From Escherichia coli (GTDB lineage Bacteria > Pseudomonadota > Gammaproteobacteria > Enterobacterales > Enterobacteriaceae), in assembly GCF_041248615.1 (NCBI RefSeq), contig NZ_CP158426.1: a DNA stretch of 64,000 nucleotides; one strand, written 5' to 3'. Below, piece by piece: positions 1 to 36,251 of the stretch. The first letter of the stretch is position 1. Every line of letters starts with the position of its first letter. Below the pieces are notes generated by a model. The model was not told where the DNA came from. It made no database searches and worked only from the letters and a program-made list of their open reading frames with translations. The position numbers and the translations under genes are program-made.

Positions 1-780
1 ACCAGCACCTACATCCCGCACCCGCTGCTCAGCCAGCAGGCTTTTTCACGTTTTGTGCAGGACTATCTGGTATTTGGTAACGCCTACCTGGAGAAACGCA
101 CGAACCGCTTCGGTGAAATTATCGCCCTTGAACCGGCCCTGGCAAAATACACCCGACGCGGGTTAGACCTGGATAACTACTGGTTTGTGCAATACGGCAT
201 GACCACGCAGCCGTATCAGTTCACGAAAGGCAGTATCTTTCATCTGATGGAACCGGACATCAACCAGGAGATCTACGGCCTGCCCGGTTATCTTTCTGCC
301 ATTCCATCCGCCCTGCTCAACGAGTCCGCCACGCTGTTCCGTCGAAAGTATTACATTAACGGCAGTCATGCAGGCTTCATCATGTACATGACCGATGCCG
401 CGCAGAACCAGGAGGATGTGAACAACCTCCGCAATGCGATGAAAAGCGCCAAAGGCCCTGGCAACTTCCGCAACCTGTTTATGTACTCGCCTAACGGCAA
501 AAAGGACGGGCTTCAGATCATCCCGTTGTCAGAAGTCGCGGCGAAGGATGAGTTTCTGAATATCAAGAACGTGAGCCGGGATGACATGATGGCTGCGCAT
601 CGTGTGCCGCCACAAATGATGGGGATAATGCCAAATAATGTCGGGGGATTTGGGGATGTGGAGAAGGCTGCTAATGTGTTTGTTCGAAACGAGTTGCTAC
701 CTTTACAAAAAAGGATAGAGGAGGTCAATGATTGGCTAGGTGAAGATTTAATTACATTCAATTCATATTGCTTTGATTAA
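1..780 (+). CDS. Phage portal protein (P2 Q / 186 W-like), C-terminal part; 5' end lies left of the window
   Basis: Frame 1 is open from base 1 to the stop at 778-780 (track ORF 55-780 starts at an internal GTG). Gene points toward the cos-like sequence at 2045-2063, as the portal gene does in P2-family genomes. Product call is from position and recalled family resemblance. Confidence 0.5.
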   Translation, partial: TSTYIPHPLLSQQAFSRFVQDYLVFGNAYLEKRTNRFGEIIALEPALAKYTRRGLDLDNYWFVQYGMTTQPYQFTKGSIFHLMEPDINQEIYGLPGYLSAIPSALLNESATLFRRKYYINGSHAGFIMYMTDAAQNQEDVNNLRNAMKSAKGPGNFRNLFMYSPNGKKDGLQIIPLSEVAAKDEFLNIKNVSRDDMMAAHRVPPQMMGIMPNNVGGFGDVEKAANVFVRNELLPLQKRIEEVNDWLGEDLITFNSYCFD

Positions 781-790
781 TATTTAAGTT

Positions 791-823
791 AGCCCCAAGA
801 GAAATGAAAATTCTCAATGGGGC
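791..823. terminator. Inverted repeat between the convergent portal and RES genes (AGCCCCA...TGGGGCT with inner GAGAA/TTCTC)
   Basis: Nested palindrome read directly in the 52-bp gap between two convergent stops; weak T-run, so terminator function is tentative. Confidence 0.3.
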
Positions 824-832
824 TATTATCAC

Positions 833-1984
833 TTATTCAACTTCATCGTAATAAATCTCCCATTGATCATTCATACCAACAACCTGCTTTTCCTCGTAAA
901 TATACTGAACCTTGTCAATTTCTATTACTTTTGATGAACCATCTATAAATTCCATACATGAAGGATTAAAAACAACCAAGTTCTTACCTTTACCAACTGT
1001 ACTTGAAAATTGTATACCATCATACCCCTCTTTCCTTATACAATCAGATATTAGTTGGGACACACTATATCTTCCTTCTAAGGAAGGTGGAGTTGCAGTA
1101 TTAAAAATACCTGCCATCTTTGCATATGGTATCATGGATAATAAACTTTCATCACTCTCAATAAACTCTAAAAAATTAGGATAAGAAAAATCGAATACCT
1201 TTAATGCTTTTGCAACTCTAAATTTACCAATTGAAACAACATCTGTTGGATGAGGTCGAACTTCCGCAATTGCAGTATAACTATCTGTAGCACAATAAAG
1301 GTAAGAAACGCCTGCTCTATTAGCCCTGCCAGCAGTAGCCTTTAGTGGTGGCACGGCTCCTATTTCCTTATCTTTAAATGGAACAAATATTTTCTTTCCT
1401 TCACGGCTAAATCCCCTAAGTGCTGTTTTATAGCCAGCAGTCCCAACTCTGGCTCTATATACCACAGAACTTCCTTCTATTATCTTCGAAAAAATATCAC
1501 CATAACCTTTTATAATACTTCTTAGCTCACCTTCAAAATCATGGTAATTCTTTTCTGAAAGCTGTTTTGACAAAGAATCTAAAAATGGCTGATGTGCATT
1601 TCTGATAGACATATATGGCGTATTATATAGACCATCAGATCCATAGCCTGCATAAATATTTATTCCCTCACTATCAAATGCCATATCCCACAATTCGCTA
1701 TCGAGTTCCCCAAAAGATTCATCATGCTCCTGTATATCCTTGGTGAAAATAAAATCATCTTCCAATAGAAAACTCGGGTAATACTCCCCTCCAAAATGAG
1801 TATTGTAATCGACTTCATCATAATGATATCTCAGAATAGCTTTCAACAAATTACGTACTTCTGAAGAATCAGTATCTAAACAAACAGTATCTGCACAACA
1901 AAAAGCACAAATACCTCGTATATTTTGCGAAAAAATTAGTTTTTTTATATTTGATTCAACAATGTGACTTTCGCAGATATACAT
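833..1984 (-). CDS. RES-domain protein with Cys/His-rich N-terminal domain (putative NAD+-targeting toxin / abortive-infection effector); AT-rich cargo gene
   Basis: C-terminal half carries the RES signature: VYRAR, AGRANRAGVSYLYCATDSYTAIAEVRPH (R..N..G...LY.A.......E) and DGIQFSSTVGKGKNLVVFNP (conserved Ser, N.vvF). N-terminus has C-x20-C-x2-CC-x4-C. AGGAG sits 6 nt upstream of the second ATG (1984). Markedly AT-rich versus flanking phage genes. Confidence 0.6.
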   Translation of the reverse strand: MYICESHIVESNIKKLIFSQNIRGICAFCCADTVCLDTDSSEVRNLLKAILRYHYDEVDYNTHFGGEYYPSFLLEDDFIFTKDIQEHDESFGELDSELWDMAFDSEGINIYAGYGSDGLYNTPYMSIRNAHQPFLDSLSKQLSEKNYHDFEGELRSIIKGYGDIFSKIIEGSSVVYRARVGTAGYKTALRGFSREGKKIFVPFKDKEIGAVPPLKATAGRANRAGVSYLYCATDSYTAIAEVRPHPTDVVSIGKFRVAKALKVFDFSYPNFLEFIESDESLLSMIPYAKMAGIFNTATPPSLEGRYSVSQLISDCIRKEGYDGIQFSSTVGKGKNLVVFNPSCMEFIDGSSKVIEIDKVQYIYEEKQVVGMNDQWEIYYDEVE

Positions 1985-2044
1985 CATAATCTCCTTGAAT
2001 TTTACCTTACATGCTCATTATTGCCACTTTAGCTTGCGCGCGCA

Positions 2045-2063
2045 ATCGTATCCCCGCCACGCC
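2045..2063 (-). other. cos-like cohesive-end sequence of P2/186 type (bottom strand GGCGTGGCGGGGATACGAT)
   Basis: Bottom strand matches the recalled 19-nt 186 cohesive end GGCGTGGCGGGGAAAGCAT at 15/19 positions (first 13 contiguous). Lies in a GC-rich non-coding block with a perfect 12-bp palindrome TTGCGCGCGCAA at 2034-2045. Located between the early-region end and the portal gene, where cos is expected. Confidence 0.5.
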
Positions 2064-2349
2064 TGCCCGCTTTATGTAGCGGTTTTCATGCAGGTGCATG
2101 ATCTACGCAAAATCCCACCAGTTCTGGCGGGCCTTAGCAAAAACGATCCGCAAACGATCATGCGATCTCATGCGGCATAGTCATGCACTTACGGGGGAAC
2201 TGAAATCCAGTAACCGAATGATCGCTTGAAAAACGAAACATACGTACTTACAAAGCACAAAGCCTGCTTTGAGCGAAGCGGACATTAATAATGTTGCTGA
2301 CCATCCCTAGTACTTCTCATAATATATCCGTATGTTAATCAACAAAATA

Positions 2350-4242
2350 TTAATTTGTCCCATCACTAAAGAATTTGATTGCGTCAGTTAGTACATAGTC
2401 AATGAAAAATTTTACGTGAAAGACCTGAAAAACGCTATTTTCTGAGTTTTTAATGAAATCTACAGCTATATCTTTTAGGTTGATCAACCAGTTATATTCT
2501 TCAATCAGTCTAGTTCTGGCATCCGCATCAGAATAACGACTCCGTAAGCTAAATGCCAGTTTCCTCATGATAACTGGATCAAGTTTCCTATAGCTTTCAA
2601 TGAAAACATCAGCAGGAACTAAGTGTAAAAAAGGTACATCATGAAGATTTAACTGTCTATTATTAGAATGACTCAATTCAGATAACAACGATAATTTTCC
2701 CCTTTGTAACTCATCTCTGAACTGCAATGCAAATTCCGAAATTGAATCATCAAACCGTTTCTTCCTTTCTATTTTAATATGTTCAATAATGAGCTTAAAG
2801 TCATCACTATCCCTGTCAAGAAAACCTAAACCACGCCATGCCCTTAATTCGTTATAATGTGTTTGCGCATATTCCTTATGTACATCTTCAGCTCTAAGTC
2901 TATTATAATAATTATTTATATTCTGTTTTGTCTCATTTATGAGATCATGAACATCATCTGTTGTTAGACCTTCTTTCGCCATTTCCAGCAAAATACTCGC
3001 TGTCATCAGAAGTTCACCTAAGGAAGTGATCTTACCTGAAAACAGGTTATCCTTAGCAATAGCGTACTGCTCATAAAGCATAGTTTCATTTAGTTCTCTA
3101 TAGTTCCACAAATACTCCCATGCTTGGGAATCGCTGCTTCTAAAAAATCGCGTAATATCCAACTGAGCAAGAAGATCACCCGTTACCTTTCCATCACAGA
3201 TTAGTTCTCTCCAAGACGCACCATCCAGTAACTTCTCGGTTAATACAGGAGACGAATATTTCTCGACAATCATGTCATACTTACTTTTGACACGTTCTTT
3301 ACCCAAAAACATACCATAATTAACATTGCCGATTGAATTGAAATCCTCGTAACTAAGATTCCCTCCCCGGTACTCCATCGAAAAAATTAACAATTGATGA
3401 AAAAACACCCTTATAAATTCATCGTTACTTACATATTTATCTCCCAAAAGGGAAATAATTCGTTGTACATCGAGAAAGAACTGCCTCAAGTGTCTTAGAT
3501 TATTATAATTCGCTGACACATAGAGGTCCTCTATTGTCTGCATATCTTCTTTAAATATATTAGCAACATGCAAACTACTAATTACGTTCAAAAAAATCTT
3601 ACAAGCACTATGTAAATCTGACGTTACTTCAAATGTTTTACCTACTAGCTTTTCTTTTGTTCTCATGTATTCATTGCGAGATTTCTCATCATCATTATTT
3701 ATTCGCTTTTCTCTATTGATTATTTCATCTTCATTGGCAACCAAGATCGCTTTGTATCCGTTTACCTCTACAAAGTGATTTATATATCCAAATAAGATTG
3801 GTAAATCTACACCAGCTCTCTCGACATCATCAAAGACCAGCACAAAACCATCTGGTTTTCTAGTAAAGTCGCTAAGATTAATGGTGGGAACATTGCTATT
3901 GACATCTACGTCAGATTTATTATCGCCATTAAGATCGATCTTGAAAGTAGCCTTAAGCGTATTTTTTAGTACATTTGCACCAAAGATAAGGGCTTTGTTT
4001 GATAGGACAGGATGCAGTTGACGATAGAACTCATCTTCAATCTGCTCAATAGAGTTGACGCCATACAAGCTCACTTTTAGAAATTTGAACTCTGAATGTT
4101 TCTGCCTATATTCTTCAAGAACTCGTTCAATGAACCAAGTTTTACCTGATCCCCAAGCACCTTTAAGCATAATGGCGTATTGAGGTTCAGTTTTAAGGCT
4201 AAGGTAATATTCTAGATAGTCTTTGATGTACGTATTGTGCAT
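2350..4242 (-). CDS. KAP-family P-loop NTPase (candidate anti-phage defence cargo in the tin/old-equivalent hotspot)
   Basis: Walker A GAWGSGKT in the KAP-type GxWGxGK[ST] context and Walker B-like hhhhDDVER (VLVFDDVER); about 630 aa. AT-rich. Start taken at the MHNTY Met (4242); the track ORF extends to 4293 with no RBS. Confidence 0.65.
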   Translation of the reverse strand: MHNTYIKDYLEYYLSLKTEPQYAIMLKGAWGSGKTWFIERVLEEYRQKHSEFKFLKVSLYGVNSIEQIEDEFYRQLHPVLSNKALIFGANVLKNTLKATFKIDLNGDNKSDVDVNSNVPTINLSDFTRKPDGFVLVFDDVERAGVDLPILFGYINHFVEVNGYKAILVANEDEIINREKRINNDDEKSRNEYMRTKEKLVGKTFEVTSDLHSACKIFLNVISSLHVANIFKEDMQTIEDLYVSANYNNLRHLRQFFLDVQRIISLLGDKYVSNDEFIRVFFHQLLIFSMEYRGGNLSYEDFNSIGNVNYGMFLGKERVKSKYDMIVEKYSSPVLTEKLLDGASWRELICDGKVTGDLLAQLDITRFFRSSDSQAWEYLWNYRELNETMLYEQYAIAKDNLFSGKITSLGELLMTASILLEMAKEGLTTDDVHDLINETKQNINNYYNRLRAEDVHKEYAQTHYNELRAWRGLGFLDRDSDDFKLIIEHIKIERKKRFDDSISEFALQFRDELQRGKLSLLSELSHSNNRQLNLHDVPFLHLVPADVFIESYRKLDPVIMRKLAFSLRSRYSDADARTRLIEEYNWLINLKDIAVDFIKNSENSVFQVFHVKFFIDYVLTDAIKFFSDGTN

Positions 4243-4563
4243 TTTTAGTCCATTTTGATAAAATACATAAACATAGATGGTAAGTAGAGCCAAAGGCCAA
4301 CTATGGAAAACTCAATCGGTAGTGTACATTGTAAGGTTATTATTGGTAAATATTATAGGAATACCCATAATCTAACAAAATTCAGATTATCCGTTGCAAA
4401 TTAGTCTGCCATTCGCTAATTGACGAAAGATAGCACAAGAAACGTTCGCTTCTGGCACAAAGCGGACGATCACTTATAAAAATGACCGCCCACCTTACGC
4501 CTTATTTCACTCGTTGCCCAAACTAGCCCCCATTAGAATGAATCCTCCTAGGGGCAACGTTTC

Positions 4564-4797
4564 TTAATGCAGCCAGCTGTCATCTTCCCACACTTTCTGC
4601 ATAATTTTCATTACTTGTTTTCTTTCTTCGTCCAGTTGCAGTCCGGTTAGTTCCACACCGTTAGAGCTACCTTTGCGGATACGAATTACCGTTTTGGAAT
4701 ACAGGGGGCGCAGATTGCGGTAAAGCTCGGATTCAAGGGCGTCCAGGGTAGACTGGCTAATCTTCTGCTCTTTATCGATCATTATTTCAATGCGCAT
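4564..4797 (-). CDS. DinI-family protein (resembles E. coli DinI and the DinI-like domain of phage 186 Tum)
   Basis: MRIEIMIDKEQ...LDALESEL...IRIRKG...LTGLQLDEERKQVMKIMQKVWEDDSW aligns by eye with DinI (MRIEV.IAK...IDAL..EL......V.VR...LSV.G...E...I.EILQETWE.ADDW). GAGGTG RBS 7 nt upstream of ATG at 4797; track ORF 4564-4869 is an upstream extension. Confidence 0.6.
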   Translation of the reverse strand: MRIEIMIDKEQKISQSTLDALESELYRNLRPLYSKTVIRIRKGSSNGVELTGLQLDEERKQVMKIMQKVWEDDSWLH

Positions 4798-4807
4798 AAA
4801 AGTCACC

Positions 4808-4996
4808 TCAGCTGATGACATCCATTGAGCGGTTGTATTCGTGGCTTCTGATTTTTGCCATGAGTTCATCAGTCAATTCAGAAACCCACTGCAGAGCCAG
4901 CCCCTTCTCTTCATCACTACACTCACTAGCCGCTACAAGCTTAAGAAAAAAATCAATGCGCTGGAGCTTCAAAGACTCCAAAAAATAGTCCTGCAT
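4808..4996 (-). CDS. Small phage protein of unknown function, first gene of a two-gene unit with the DinI-like gene
   Basis: 62-codon ORF with AGGAGG RBS 5 nt upstream of ATG; its stop lies 10 nt before the DinI-like start. Confidence 0.45.
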   Translation of the reverse strand: MQDYFLESLKLQRIDFFLKLVAASECSDEEKGLALQWVSELTDELMAKIRSHEYNRSMDVIS

Positions 4997-5039
4997 CTTT
5001 CCTCCTATGACACCACACGCAATTCTGTATGTATAACCA

Positions 5040-5055
5040 CTGTTTATATTTACAG
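5040..5055 (-). promoter_or_regulatory. LexA-box-like motif (bottom strand CTGT-N8-ACAA) upstream of the small-protein/DinI-like pair
   Basis: Top strand TTGTTTATATTTACAG; on the coding strand this is CTGTAAATATAAACAA, one mismatch from the CTGT-N8-ACAG SOS box, about 45 bp upstream of the start codon. Confidence 0.3.
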
Positions 5056-5149
5056 TATATAATAATCCTACTGATGTAAAACGTTTTTTTACGCTTATCA
5101 GCCTGATATGCCTGGTATTATTAAGAGCACGAATTGTTAACCCGCGTAA

Positions 5150-7564
5150 TTAATACAGGTTCCGCCACTGATCATCTTCCTGCAAACGTTGGTTCCGATA
5201 GAAGATACGCAGGCCTGCTCCTGACGGAATACTGCCGCCACGAAGGAGTAAATAGACCTCTTTCTCGCTGCCATCAAATCCTCTGGACTTCAGTTCATAG
5301 ACAAGCTGCTGTCGCTGATGGTCTGTAATTCGCTGTTTGTAGTCTTTACGCCGTTTCGGTTTCACCAGGCGTAACCTTGCAGCCAGTTCCCGGCGCTCTT
5401 TTTTGCTCATACTGTGCAGGTATTCGTGCAACTCCTTGTCATCCATGCGGGTGATATCCGTTCTGGTATCTCCATCAGCTGATTTGTCTTTCCCTTGTTG
5501 GTACAAATTTTCAGCAAGGGGACAGTTATTGCCACGAGTCCAAGGGGCGCAAGCGCCCTGGTCGGCTGCCGCCTCCTGAACGTCAACGGCCTTACGAACC
5601 ATTTTCCACTTCACTGCATGAGTGCAGATCTTGCCCTCTGCAATGGGTGACCAGATGCCATAAATACGAATGCCGTGATCGCCATAGGCGGTCGGCTCTT
5701 CGTTAATTTCATAAGCAGTTCTGATGAGGTGATATTTGCGGGGAACCAGTACGCCGCCCTGCTTCATGATGTAAGTGGCAAAACAACCAGCATCAGCAGC
5801 AGCCAGGATTGCATCAAGGCGCGGGTTATCCAGTACCGGCGCACCTGCTTTTTTGTCCCCCTGTTGCCTTGCCGCCTGACCAGCCAGCAATCGCAGTTCA
5901 CGGTAAGCCTGACGCCCCGGAATGCCAAAGAAGCGGAATTGCTGAACACGATGCAGAGACGCCCAGGCATTAACGTATTCAGCGTTATCACGCAGGGATT
6001 TACCCGTTTCCTTGCTGATCTCGCCAGCCAGACCACGCCCGTCAATGTTCTTACTGATGTATTTCGCGATGTAGCTTGTTGGCGTACCTTTGCGCGGGTT
6101 TATCAGCTCAGACTTAAAGCGTGGTCCCGTGTTATTCCCCAGCTCCTCGCGGTCTTCACGAATGGCAAACTTACGCAATAAAGCAGTAATGGCGCGGCGA
6201 TCTTTTTTGCGCATAAAACACAACAGGTGCCAGTGAACTGTACCGTCATGATGCGGCTCAGCCACCCGCACGCCATACCACCGCAATCCGGCTTTGTGCA
6301 TCGCCTTACGAAATGCAGCAAACATGCCGACCAGATAATCACTGCTTTGTTTTACCGTCGCATTTGTCCAGGTTGGGTTGGGCCTGCCGTTATTTAGCGT
6401 GGAATGGAAACGTGACGGACAGGTGATGGTGTAGAAAACGGCGCAGTCACCGCGCATTTCCGCGATAAGCTCCAGACCTTTAACACAGGCCATCATCTCA
6501 TTGCGGCGATGCGCAGGGTTGCTGCTGCTGGCGTTTACCACATCCTCCATGTCCAGCGTGTCGCCGTCTTCGTTCACCAGTTCATGAGAACGGAAAAACT
6601 CCAGCGACTTACGGCGCTGCTCACGTTTATGCATCACGGCTTCATAGCTGACATAGGGGGATGCTTTTTTGCTAACCAGGCAGACAGCGCGCAACTGCTC
6701 TTCCCGCCATTCGCAACGCATCTTCCATAATTTCCGATACCACCAGTCGGCGCACAACATACGCGCCAGCGAACCCGGAATGAGTTCATAGGGCACGGGT
6801 TTACGGCGGTTTCTTTTCCGGCGGAGTTGCTCAAACGCAGGTGGGATGACATCCAGACGCAGGGTTTCCGCCGCCACCCTTTCCCATGTCTTGCGGATTT
6901 CTTCTGGCTTAACGTCATCGGTGGCATACAAATCGCCACAAGCTGCATCAAGGCACATGCTCATATGCGCAGCAACAAGGGTGGACAGGCGTTTCACCTG
7001 ATCCTGACTCATTTCAGGCAGAATCAGCAGGCCGTCCAGCCCTTCATGGCTTGCCATAAAGCGAAAAGAAGTGGATAGCTGACTGTCGCGTACATGCTCC
7101 AGCCGTTCCAGACATGGCTTAATCGTCTCACGCAAATAGCGGGAATAAGCCTTTGGCCTGCCAAGGCTACTGAAGTATTCAATACGTTGCATCAGCGGCT
7201 TGCTGATATGGGAGGGCTGGGCGCTGACGTCTGCCAGAATGACCATGTCCGGGTTAAAACGCTGCTGCTCATGCGCCAACTTTGCCCGGCTAATGAGCTT
7301 ATCCTGCTCCATTTCGCGCTGGACAGGATCACGGGATTCATTAAAGAAATAACGCTCCCAGACCTGATCACTCAGTGCCTCGCGGCGCAGTTGTTCCTGC
7401 TCGTTATCGGCAGCGTACAGAGTGATCAGGTTTGAAAGCGCAGAAACCGGCGCAACTTCCGCCGGGTCCAGATAAGGGTTAATAGCCTTTTTCGGGCTGT
7501 TCCATGAGAATGCTGCGGCGGCCTCGTTAAAGCCGCTGCAGTTGTTCATATCAGCATGGCTCAT
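5150..7564 (-). CDS. Phage replication initiation endonuclease (P2 gpA / 186 A family, rolling-circle)
   Basis: 804-aa ORF; size, early-operon position and C-terminal region resemble P2-family A proteins. Start overlaps the Dam stop by 4 nt. Confidence 0.8.
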
Positions 7565-12421: not shown

Positions 12422-12447
12422 AACCCATTTAGATAAGTGGGTTTTTT
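12422..12447 (+). terminator. Rho-independent terminator after int / att-junction hairpin (AACCCA-N10-TGGGTT + TTTTTT)
   Basis: Stem-loop followed by a six-T run; its 3' part TGGGTTTTTTGTT equals the recalled 3' end of the E. coli RybB sRNA terminator. Confidence 0.5.
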
Positions 12448-12466
12448 GTTATCTAAAATTTATCTA

Positions 12467-30430: not shown

Positions 30431-31969
30431 TTATTGCAAATCCGCGTCTTCAAAGCTGAAGCCGGTGTCTGGCATGATCCAAAAACCGGTCAGGTTTTTA
30501 CTGTGTGCCGACACCAGTTTTTCTACCACCAGCGGGATCCACGGCGACTCTTGCCAGATGATATCCTGCGCCGCCTTATATAAACGGGTCTTTTCTGCCG
30601 GATCATTAGTTTTCAGTGCCTGAGCCAGGAAATCATCCACCTGTTTATTGCTGTAAAACGCGGTATTAAACAGCGTCGGTGGCCAGTTCTGCGAGGCAAA
30701 CAGCGGCGATAGTGCCCAGTCCGCTTCGCCGGTTGAAGCCGACCAGCCAGTGTAGAACATCCGCACGCCGCTCTCTTTTTGCCCTTTACCTTCAACTTCT
30801 GCCGCCCGCTGTCCGGCATCCATCGCAGTCACCTGGGCTTTAATCCCGACCTGCGCTAACTGCTGCTGGGTAAATTGCAGCACTTTCTGCGCGGTGCTGT
30901 GGTTATGTGACGACCACAGCGTGGTACTGAAACCGTTGGGATATCCCGCCTCTTTCAGTAATTCGCGCGCTTTCACTGGATCGTAAGGCCACGGTTTATA
31001 ACTTTGCGCGTAGGCGATACTCGGCGGTACCACACCAGTAGCTGGCGTTGCATAGCCCGCGAAGGCTACTTTCACCAGCGCCGGGCGGTTAATGGCGTAA
31101 TTCAGCGCCTCACGGACCTTCGGGTTATCGAACGGCTTTTGCGTCACGTTCATACTGATATAACGCTGCATAATTGACGGACTGGCCATCAACTCGATAT
31201 TTTTGTTTTTCTCCAGCAGTGCGGCCTGCTCGTAGGGAATGGGGAAAGCAAACTGCGCTTCACCGGTTTGCAGCATTGCCGCGCGGGTATTGTTATCCGC
31301 CACCGGACGCCAGGTTATGCTGTCCAGTTTGGGCAATCCTGGCTGCCAGTAACCCGCGAATTTTTTCACCTTCACAAAATCGGTCTGATTCCAGGTATCC
31401 AGTTCATACGGCCCGGTTCCCACCGGATGAAAACCAATCTCCTTGCCATATTTTTCCAGCGCTGCCGGCGAAATCATCGCGGTCGCCGGATGGGCAAGAA
31501 TATTAATAAACGCTGAGAACGGCTGTTTGAGGGTAATCTTTACCGTTGTTGGATCGATCGCTTCCGTTTTGGCAATATTCTTATACAGGTTGTAGCGTTT
31601 AAGATGATTCGCCGGATCGCTGGCCCGGTCCAGATTCGCTTTTACCGCCGCTGCGTTGAAGTCGGTGCCATCCTGGAATTTAATGCCTTCCCGCAATTTC
31701 ACGGTGTAAGTAAGGCCGTCATCGGAAACGGTATAACTCTCCGCCAGCACGTTTTTCAGTTTCATCTCTTTATCGAGACCGAACAGCCCCTGGTAAAACG
31801 ATTTCGCTACGGCCTGAGATAACGTGTCATTTGCGTCATACGGATCGAGCGTGGTGAAGTTCGATCCTACCGCCACCACCACATCTTTGGCAGCGAATGC
31901 ACAAGATGCCATCAACGCTGTCGCAATGCCCAGCGCCACTAACCCACTACGGTGTACAGCTCTTGCCAT
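30431..31969 (-). CDS. gsiB: Glutathione-binding periplasmic protein GsiB
   Basis: 512 aa from MARAVHRSG with signal peptide; the 601-aa track ORF is an upstream extension. Confidence 0.9.
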
Positions 31970-35015: not shown

Positions 35016-36251
35016 ATGGAATTTACCACCGGATTGATGTCGCTCGACACCGCGCTTAATGAGATGCTTTCTCGCGTTACCCCACTGACCGCCCAGGAAA
35101 CGCTGCCACTGGTTCAGTGTTTTGGTCGTATTCTGGCGAGCGATGTCGTTTCGCCGCTTGATGTCCCGGGGTTTGATAACTCCGCTATGGACGGCTACGC
35201 GGTGCGTTTAGCCGATATTGCCTCCGGGCAACCGCTGCCCGTTGCCGGTAAATCCTTTGCCGGTCAGCCGTACCATGGTGAATGGCCTGCGGGTACCTGC
35301 ATCCGCATTATGACTGGCGCACCAGTACCCGAAGGCTGCGAAGCGGTGGTGATGCAGGAACAGACCGAACAGACTGACGCTGGCGTGCGTTTTACTGCTG
35401 AAGTGCGTAGCGGGCAAAATATTCGCCGTCGCGGTGAAGATATCTCTGCGGGTGCGGTTGTTTTCCCGGCGGGAACTCGCCTGACTACCGCAGAGCTGCC
35501 AGTAATTGCTTCACTGGGGATTGCCGAAGTTCCGGTGATTCGTAAAGTGCGTGTAGCGCTGTTTTCTACCGGTGATGAACTCCAGTTGCCAGGCCAGCCG
35601 CTGGGCGACGGCCAAATCTACGATACCAACCGTCTCGCCGTACACCTGATGTTAGAACAGCTGGGATGCGAGGTAATCAACTTAGGGATTATCCGCGACG
35701 ATCCCCATGCCCTGCGCGCCGCATTTATTGAAGCCGATAGCCAGGCGGATGTGGTGATCAGTTCCGGCGGTGTTTCAGTGGGTGAAGCGGATTACACCAA
35801 AACCATTCTTGAAGAGCTGGGGGAGATCGCCTTCTGGAAGCTGGCGATTAAACCAGGTAAACCGTTCGCGTTCGGAAAACTTTCTAATAGCTGGTTCTGC
35901 GGCCTGCCGGGCAACCCGGTTTCAGCAACGCTGACCTTCTATCAACTGGTACAGCCTTTGCTGGCAAAACTAAGCGGCAATACCGCCAGTGGCCTGCCCG
36001 CGCGCCAGCGTGTACGCACAGCGTCCCGCCTGAAAAAAACGCCAGGACGCCTTGATTTCCAGCGCGGCGTGCTGCAACGCAACGCCGATGGCGAACTGGA
36101 AGTGACGACCACCGGGCATCAGGGTTCACATATATTTAGCTCCTTTAGCCTCGGCAACTGCTTTATCGTACTGGAGCGCGAGCGCGGCAATGTGGACGTG
36201 GGCGAATGGGTGGAAGTAGAACCGTTTAACGCATTGTTCGGAGGCCTGTAA
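35016..36251 (+). CDS. moeA: Molybdopterin molybdenumtransferase MoeA
   Basis: 411 aa; synteny. Confidence 0.9.

Follow-up and report, generated by a model that had tools for sequence, protein, structure and literature searches.

The locus and its genes

The window is a 64,000-nucleotide stretch of Escherichia coli DNA. Its first 16 kb are 100% identical to the chromosome of E. coli NRZ14408 (NZ_LT599825.1, from 3491669), where the RefSeq annotation places a P2-family prophage between ybjL and rcdA. The prophage genes run in the order ogr, tail, lysis, gpL, gpM, gpN, gpO, gpP, portal, cos region, DinI, gpA, Dam methylase, CII/CI switch and integrase. A 14-bp direct repeat, GTGGGTTTTTTGTT, forms the att core and bounds a 34.3-kb element; one copy of the repeat lies inside the window at 12437-12450. 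E. coli HS phage 1 is integrated at this chromosomal site too. The published att core of the HS phage, AACAAAAAACCCAT, was not found verbatim in the window, and the local repeat differs from it by one base.

The portal gene reads toward cos, as in P2, and gpA is encoded on the - strand at 5150-7564. The terminase genes, gpP for the large subunit and gpM for the small, are located 0.25-5 kb to the left of the window start in the source genome. An earlier suggestion to look for portal and terminase genes immediately left of the window was correct, with the 3' part of the portal gene falling inside it.

Two - strand cargo genes lie on either side of the cos region. The first encodes a 384-aa protein that PGAP names "RES family NAD+ phosphorylase"; searches of this protein against PADLOC, PHROG and NCBIfam gave no match. 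The second encodes a P-loop NTPase of the KAP family. The cos-proximal region of P2-like phages, from gpA to gpQ, is a hotspot of anti-phage systems (PMC9122126; 2026 bioRxiv preprint), and the cos-gpQ interval had been flagged earlier as a site of foreign genes (Dodd & Egan 1996 and Nakayama 1999, as cited in PMC5694545). The features are collected in Table 1.

Table 1. Features of the cos region and its flanks, in window coordinates
Feature	Position	Strand	Basis
Portal gene (P2 gpQ-type), C-terminal part	1-780	+	phrog_68, E=2e-130; PGAP "phage portal protein"
RES-domain cargo gene, 384 aa	833-1987	-	Pfam RES PF08808, E=4.5e-18, C-terminal
RES-gene 5' leader/promoter region, outside cos	1988-2033	-	Shine-Dalgarno AGGAG 1992-1996; one weak sigma-70-like match 2027-1999
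Whole conserved cos module (predicted), 156 bp, 54.5% GC	2034-2189		blastn segment boundaries against vB_EcoM-813R9 and Fels-2
Equivalent of the 55-bp P2/P4 cos core	2038-2092	-	gap-free alignment to the P2/P4 identity block
Predicted 19-nt cohesive-end sequence (cosN equivalent), GGCGTGGCGGGGATACGAT	2045-2063	-	register from records ending at 2064 and the HS phage 1 19-mer
Short hairpin CCGCT-TTATGT-AGCGG + TTTTC, directly beside the predicted top-strand nick	2067-2082	+	scan and manual alignment comparison
Proximal pair TCATGCA-GG-TGCATGA, boxes -36/-29, 7-nt inverted arms, then AAAACC tract	2086-2101		conservation
Hairpin CCCGCCAG-AA-CTGGTGGG (- strand CCCGCCAGAACTGGTGGG), then ATTTTG	2114-2131	-	consensus scan
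Three direct YGCATG boxes, -124/-111/-101 from the cut	2182-2187, 2169-2174, 2159-2164	-	positional conservation
KAP-NTPase gene 3' flank, outside cos	2190-2349	-	hairpin 2255-2274; not conserved in relatives
KAP-family P-loop NTPase cargo gene, 647 aa	2350-4293	-	PADLOC candidate PDC-S49, E=3e-156

A conserved island between two cargo insertions

The gap between the two cargo genes, 1988-2349, is 362 bp long. When it was compared by blastn with 50,697 phage records, 100 P2-family records matched, from hosts including Klebsiella, Yersinia, Escherichia, Salmonella, Erwinia and others, and just ~2030-2191 aligned (best E=7e-61, 94%). Pairwise comparison with vB_EcoM-813R9 and Fels-2 showed conservation over 1-717 (portal), none over 718-2033, conservation again over 2034-2189 (94% to vB_EcoM-813R9, 90% to Fels-2), none over 2190-4553, and conservation from 4554 onward (DinI, gpA). 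Judged from these alignments, 2034-2189 is the sole backbone sequence between the two cargo insertions. The 156-bp island, with the same borders (~2034-2038 to 2187-2189), was found in 1,188 of 5,426 complete E. coli genomes and is left unannotated in nearly all of the 1,188. PGAP likewise has no annotation at the cos site of the window prophage.

The initial annotation had taken the whole of 1988-2349 for a GC-rich, non-coding cos. Its cos assignment stands for 2034-2189 and fails for 1988-2033, which is not conserved in relatives, and for 2190-2349; these are untranslated flanks of the cargo genes. The description as GC-rich is wrong, the gap having 45.0% GC versus 49.8% for the whole window. 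The core itself is at the level of the phage backbone, and the contrast with the 30-36% GC of the two flanking genes makes it stand out.

Register of the cohesive ends

Read on the - strand, window 2045-2063 is GGCGTGGCGGGGATACGAT. It was compared with the cohesive ends in the deposited genomes of P2 (NC_001895, 1-19, GGCGAGGCGGGGAAAGCAC) and 186 (NC_001317, 1-19, GGCGTGGCGGGGAAAGCAT). P2 matches at 14/19, and the agreement with the 186 end is unbroken over the first 13 nt, as stated in the initial annotation; the match to 186, given there as 15/19, is 16/19, and the same value holds for PSP3. The closest class is that of SEN8, E. coli HS and Fels-2, GGCGTGGCGGGGATACGAG, with 18/19. If up to three mismatches are allowed, the 186 19-mer has a single match in the 64-kb window, against 0.04 expected from shuffles.

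The register of the ends comes from known phage genomes. A search with the - strand of 2020-2200 showed that every matched record with cos-defined ends stops at query position 137. This corresponds to window 2064, immediately beside the 19-mer, and is seen in PSP3 (30572-30636 of 30636), SEN8 (35079-35203 of 35203), SEN1 and EtG. In addition, the circular junctions of P2, P4, 186, PSP3 and SEN8 were rebuilt and E. coli HS phage 1 was added. Alignment to the P2 and 186 cos regions had been proposed as a check, and the seven junctions (window, HS, SEN8, 186, PSP3, P2, P4) align over 180 columns without a gap (MAFFT). The invariant columns include TGCAT.AAAACC, AAG.GGGC and GCGCGC. In this alignment the block of near-identity between P2 and P4 spans -29 to +26 around the 19-mer, exactly 55 bp, and is made up of 29 nt on the right-end side, the 19-mer, and the 7 nt (T/C)GCGCGC on the left-end side. 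A 55-bp cos core is credited to Ziermann & Calendar 1990 where that work is cited in PMC3931495 and PMC5694545.

Physical ends are available for a close relative. The cos of E. coli HS phage 1, GGCGTGGCGGGGATACGAG at NC_009800 926016-926034, was determined from read starts with PhageTerm after mitomycin C induction (PMC8008629, Suppl. Table 4, Microbiome 2021), and the sequence was confirmed at the published coordinates in the NC_009800 record. By sequence relationship, the HS phage 1 ends are the strongest support for a 19-nt register in the Fels-2-type lineage. The claim that the block contains cos and sets the genome ends of the phage is thus supported by the record ends at 2064, the gap-free junction alignment and the gene context. 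That context, with portal and gpA of a full phage as the flanks, also rules out the cos of a P4-like satellite.

A different reading would be that the likeness of the 19-mer to phage ends arose by chance and that the block is a regulatory region of the cargo genes or a gene for a small protein (ORF 1995-2180). Terminator-like hairpins do occur in excess (3 sites vs 0.5 expected), and the 61-codon frame is open in Fels-2-type relatives. But its codon differences from four relatives are mostly non-synonymous (3:8, 4:10, 2:4, 3:8), a substitution pattern no better than that of the other frames; it starts in non-conserved cargo DNA and it has a stop codon in 186. The small ORF was accordingly rejected, and the block is non-coding as originally described. 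A promoter scan of 1900-2450 found 1 site vs 1.5 expected, which is not significant. An Rfam scan of 700-5200 (E<=1) returned nothing in the block, and two sub-threshold chance matches to eukaryotic families inside a cargo gene. Further, the core is kept whatever cargo flanks it in the 1,188 E. coli genomes, it is present also in phages of Salmonella, Klebsiella, Yersinia and Erwinia, and it aligns in register to experimentally defined ends. With next to no probability left to it, the reading as chance, regulation or a small protein is refuted for practical purposes.

Very probably, then, 2034-2189 is the cos of a complete-looking, ~34.3-kb Fels-2 (Felsduovirus-like) P2-family prophage between ybjL and rcdA. 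We infer from sequence comparison that this cos is cleaved in this strain, and also the roles of the boxes and hairpins described below.

The predicted bottom-strand cut

The window copy differs from its relatives at one end of the 19-mer. Marking the nick by ^, the HS, Fels-2 and SEN8 junctions read ...ACGAG^CGCGCGCAA and the window reads ...ACGAT^TGCGCGCGCAA. Compared with HS, position 19 is T not G, position +20 is T not C, and the GC run has one more repeat. Either two substitutions and an additional GC or an insertion of TT would account for the difference. These changes from the HS site fall exactly at the predicted bottom-strand cut. The variant is also rare. The exact window 19-mer occurs in 1 of the 120 loci among the matches listed in the survey described below, and copies of the cos island with at least 99% identity are present in 2 of 5,426 complete E. 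coli genomes. Given the position of the changes and the rarity of the variant, this copy is assumed to be cut efficiently and to have the overhang length stated here.

The variant has the same AT^TGCGCGC sequence around the predicted cut as 186 and PSP3, and it creates a perfect 12-bp palindrome, TTGCGCGCGCAA, at 2034-2045. The palindrome had been reported at this position in the initial annotation and is indeed there. As a standalone feature it was rejected: palindromes of this length class occur at the chance rate, 16 perfect ones being seen in the window vs ~15.6 expected. It is the conserved GCGCGC flank lengthened by the local change, and all relatives have the same conserved GCGCGC core as the left flank of their cos.

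Given where the changes fall, it is conceivable, though unlikely, that the site is a cos by descent that is now disused, with either a defective prophage or impaired bottom-strand nicking caused by the changes at positions 19 and +20. The location and rarity of the variant speak for this reading, yet the same variant restores the ...AT^TGCGCGC context of the functional phages 186 and PSP3, and the remaining conserved core positions are all intact. In the late region PGAP lists partial fragments of tail-fibre and integrase genes. Two fragments marked as partial or as pseudogenes lie in the tail-fibre region, left of the window, beside an invertase-like recombinase gene. The prophage may, then, fail to make infectious particles. 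Against a general decay of the element, the annotation has all genes for head, terminase, tail, lysis, replication and integration intact, with the exception of the tail-fibre segment, and that segment, being next to a recombinase/invertase gene, may simply be an invertible region. Moreover, the same element is present at 99.4% identity in a second strain, KE47.

The same base changes could also mean a working cos with an overhang other than the 19-mer given here, of 20-21 nt for example, since two more bases separate ACGA from the GC run in the window than in the HS/Fels-2 class. This is still less probable. In P2, P4, 186, PSP3 and HS alike, a 19-nt stagger places the bottom-strand nick one base before GCGCGC, and the window has the same arrangement. 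The flanks of the strand-specific nicks are also similar, GCGGGCA^ on one strand and GCGCGCA^ on the other. With the nick arrangement common to these phages, the distance rule and the flank rule both give 19 nt. The preferred reading remains a cos whose predicted 19-nt overhang is GGCGTGGCGGGGATACGAT.

Putative recognition boxes and hairpins

The right-end side of the core carries a set of GCAT-containing boxes in fixed positions. YGCAT is found at -124, -111, -101 and -29, and in inverted orientation at -36, in 186, SEN8, Fels-2, 813R9, P4 and the window. P2 has its distal box at -123 and is without the inverted copy at -36, and in PSP3 the distal box lies at -120. Between the boxes, P2 and the Fels-2 type have unrelated sequences. 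GCAT is present at the -124, -111, -101 and -29 positions in 70%, 86%, 84% and 97%, respectively, of 117 loci among the matches listed, the last value being GCAT at -28 to -25 in 114/117. The core contains five TCATGC/GCATGA hexamers vs 0.06 expected (Poisson p=7e-9), and the conserved island stops two bases past the outermost box. From their placement and conservation, we infer that the boxes are a recognition array for terminase, most likely for its small subunit, in the manner of lambda cosB.

Several inverted repeats beyond the palindrome had been mentioned in the initial annotation and are present: CCCGCCAG/CTGGTGGG at 2114-2131, CCGCT/AGCGG at 2067-2082, and TCATGCA/TGCATGA at 2086-2092 and 2095-2101. 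The core of the first, CCAGnnCTGG, is common to the 186 and Fels-2 types, and a 9-bp stem is found in Fels-2-type relatives. Its form resembles an intrinsic terminator, and it could halt transcription of the early operon and cargo before it reaches the cut site. For the hairpin at 2067-2082, which is terminator-like as well, covariation was sought manually in the seven-junction alignment and none was found. Its outer 3-4 pairs are invariant and its inner pairs are broken in 186 and PSP3, so that a conserved structure is unsupported.

Cos classes and terminase lineage

Cohesive ends were surveyed in IMG/VR with an 18-nt pattern, GGGCRGGCGWGGCGGGGA, which gave at least 120 P2-family loci, a sample selected by that pattern. 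The commonest 19-mer class among the matches listed (120 loci) is ...ATACGAG with 46 loci, followed by ...ATAGCAT with 23, the P2 type with 17 and the 186 type with 12; minor classes make up the remainder. Over the seven 19-mer classes among the matches listed, the invariant string is GCA..TGCAT.AAAA......C...AAGCGGGC. on the right flank, GGCG.GGCGGGGA.A..A. in the 19-mer and.GCGCGC on the left flank, of which positions -5 to +13 were set by the search pattern, so their invariance is uninformative. Window 2063-2045 on the - strand fits GGCG(A/T)GGCGGGGA.A..A., the form that is invariant over these seven classes among the matches listed.

The label "186-type" in the initial annotation turned out to be wrong. 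The window 19-mer has 16/19 matches to GGCGTGGCGGGGAAAGCAT, and gpM and gpP of the prophage are 49% and 64% identical to those of 186. On sequence the window cos belongs to the Fels-2/SEN8/E. coli HS class (...ATACGAG), with 18/19; the identity is not exact, position 19 being T and not G. The right-side block and the terminase lineage are shared with this class as well (core 87-94%, gpP 97-99.7%, gpM 94-99%). To Fels-2 itself the identities are 94% for gpM and 97% for gpP, compared with 49% and ~63-64% to P2/186.

Across the survey the class of the 19-mer goes with the terminase. Among the matches listed, loci of the ATACGA(G/T) form have a gpP with a median identity of 98% to that of the window prophage and 63% to P2/186, P2-type loci have P2 gpP (100%), 186-type loci have 186 gpP (97.5%), and the ATAGCAT class is intermediate in its linked gpP. 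The initial annotation had read the variant 3' part of the 19-mer as a sign of distinct terminase specificity. The linkage of class and terminase fits that idea. The specificity itself does not follow, since cos lies 1-6 kb from the terminase genes and shared descent explains the co-variation equally well. The prophage combines the T at position 19 with a terminase that shares 99% identity with the one in HS phage 1, so this base is no evidence of a new specificity. As far as the sequences go, the variant 3' part marks a known lineage that is abundant and whose terminase is well diverged, and they are compatible with a separate specificity for the Fels-2 class.

The satellites add one more observation. 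The P4 genes psu/sid/delta accompany 0/47 Fels-2-class loci vs 11/73 others among the matches listed (Fisher p=0.003). It is a tentative and rather doubtful proposal that the GCAT array is a real terminase recognition code of the Peduoviridae and that the 3' part of the 19-mer (ATACGA vs AAAGCA) bars P4-like satellites from Fels-2-type helpers.

Proposed packaging cycle

P2-type phages package from monomeric circles. After excision and replication, gpM and gpP of the prophage would recognize ~125 bp on the gpA side, consisting of the boxes at -124, -111, -101, -36 and -29 and the AAAACC tract. The terminase would then nick 19 bp apart, between 2064 and 2063 on the - strand and between 2044 and 2045 on the + strand, each nick following a GCG(G/C)GCA-like flank. 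In this way virion DNA would gain 5'-GGCGTGGCGGGGATACGAT overhangs. The left end would lead to the RES cargo gene and portal, and the right end would carry the recognition block. After injection the ends would anneal and be ligated, and in the lysogen the cos site would be internal and silent. Such a cycle of nicking and re-annealing follows established P2 biology. Since only ~7-11 bp to the left and ~126 bp to the right of the 19-mer would be needed, foreign genes can sit tight on both sides, as is the case in this prophage.

The site is a minor sequence variant of a known, experimentally characterized cos class and is not new. It is of small practical use. From it follow predicted virion genome ends and the packaging orientation of a prophage that is unannotated at cos. 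The boundaries at 2034 and 2189 delimit both cos-flanking cargo slots, and with them what was acquired, the RES protein on one side and the KAP-NTPase (PDC-S49) on the other. The family-wide comparison is a compact map of what a P2-type terminase probably reads, and it hints at a division by cos class between helpers and P4-like satellites. Further work may be worthwhile on just two points, the GCAT boxes with their fixed register and the lack of Fels-2-class cos sites on P4-like satellites among the matches listed.

Comparison with known cos systems

E. coli HS phage 1 shares with the window prophage the ybjL/rcdA site, the gene order and an almost identical terminase (gpM 99.1%, gpP 99.7%). 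Its cos is identical to the window at 129/145 positions from -126 to +19, without gaps, including 18/19 in the 19-mer. The cargo genes differ on both sides of cos.

SEN8 and Fels-2 (Salmonella, Felsduovirus) also have the 19-mer GGCGTGGCGGGGATACGAG, again 18/19, with a right-side block 87-90% identical to the window and the same terminase lineage, but the host genus and the cargo are different. The SEN8 record starts with an annotated cos, GGCGTGGCGGGGATACGAG (PMC5427200), a call based on annotation and not on end mapping.

In 186 and PSP3 (Eganvirus), the 19-mer agrees with the window over its first 13 nt and in the AT at its end, and the bottom-strand cut has the same AT^TGCGCGC context. Both phages are identical to the window at 55-56/64 positions from -38 to +26, and the box positions are the same in 186. 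They differ in the 19-mer at positions 14, 16 and 17, and from -100 to -39 just 25-29/62 positions are identical.

P2 and P4 resemble the window in architecture and register, with the 19-nt 5' overhang that is predicted for the window, the GCGCGC left flank and the TGCAT.AAAACC...AAGCGGGC right flank. The boxes at -111, -101 and -29 are placed as in the window, and the distal box is at -123 in P2 and -124 in P4. The sequences are more distant, with 14/19 in the 19-mer, 48/64 from -38 to +26, and terminase identities of 49% for gpM and 63% for gpP.

Lambda cos, with its cosN and cosB, is unlike the window site in that it has no sequence homology, a 12-nt overhang instead of 19, and a terminase small subunit of another family. 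In function the two would be similar, as in lambda a nicking site of partial two-fold symmetry lies beside an asymmetric array of repeated protein-binding boxes.

Organization of the cos site

The packaging site, cos, contains a set of YGCAT boxes, each with a fixed spacing relative to the cut. The distances (-124, -111, -101, -36 and -29) are constant in 186, Fels-2, SEN8, E. coli phages and the satellite P4, and this spacing is kept despite divergence of the sequence between the boxes. The distal box is displaced in P2 (to -123) and in PSP3 (to -120). The conserved module also includes a terminator-like hairpin followed by a T-run, located 51-68 nt from the cut. Its stem is 9 bp long in Fels-2-type relatives and its CCAGnnCTGG core is common to 186 and PSP3.

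An open frame spans cos and is uninterrupted in every Fels-2-type relative checked. Protein-level constraint was looked for in these relatives and none was seen; the frame is probably a by-product of conservation at the DNA level. A "hypothetical protein" is annotated across this site in some phage records.

Features in the window and in L131, the source-genome (E. coli NRZ14408) locus that extends left of it
Feature	Position	Strand	Remarks
RES-domain cargo gene, 384 aa	833-1987	-	between portal gene and cos
Frame spanning cos, 61 codons	1995-2180	+
YGCAT boxes	2159-2187, 2086-2101		also in L001-L008, L135, L136
Terminator-like hairpin and T-run	2114-2131	-	within conserved cos module
KAP-family P-loop NTPase gene, 647 aa	2350-4293	-	between cos and DinI
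att core repeat	12437-12450; L131 7770-7783, 42106-42119		GTGGGTTTTTTGTT
Tail-fibre region	L131 15150-18668		left of window; PGAP

cos class and P4-like satellites

Among the IMG/VR cos loci listed (L011-L130, a sample of at least 120 chosen by sequence pattern), the Fels-2-type …ATACGAG class of the 19-mer, the cohesive-end sequence, was never seen on a P4-like satellite: 0/47 loci of this class were satellites versus 11/73 of the others (p=0.003). The satellites among the matches listed carry P2-type or …AGAGCAT/C 19-mers. There are hints that Fels-2-type helpers are possibly not parasitised by P4-like satellites.

Cargo genes flanking cos

Two AT-rich cargo genes flank cos. The first (GC about 33%) encodes a protein with a C-terminal RES domain (PF08808), named "RES family NAD+ phosphorylase" by PGAP; its N-terminal ~210 aa have no assigned domain. 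Searches of PADLOC, PHROG and NCBIfam gave 0 matches. Because the location is a known defence hotspot, this is possibly a candidate anti-phage system made up of a single gene and so far uncatalogued. The second, the KAP NTPase, has hits to PDC-S49, a candidate system in PADLOC (E=3e-156), and to phrog_4740. PGAP places its start 17 codons downstream, giving 630 aa.

Prophage limits and tail-fibre region

In the tail-fibre region the PGAP annotation shows an "integrase" marked as partial and a tail protein that is truncated at its C-terminus. Next to them are duplicated genes for tail-fibre assembly and an invertase-like gene of the recombinase family. This arrangement may reflect either a tail-fibre segment that can invert or a prophage defect. 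The prophage as a whole is 34.3 kb long and lies between ybjL and rcdA, bounded by the att core repeat; from about 12451 onward the window consists of host chromosome (~51.5 kb). The same site is occupied by a near-identical phage, E. coli HS phage 1, and its published att core differs from the repeat found here by 1 base.
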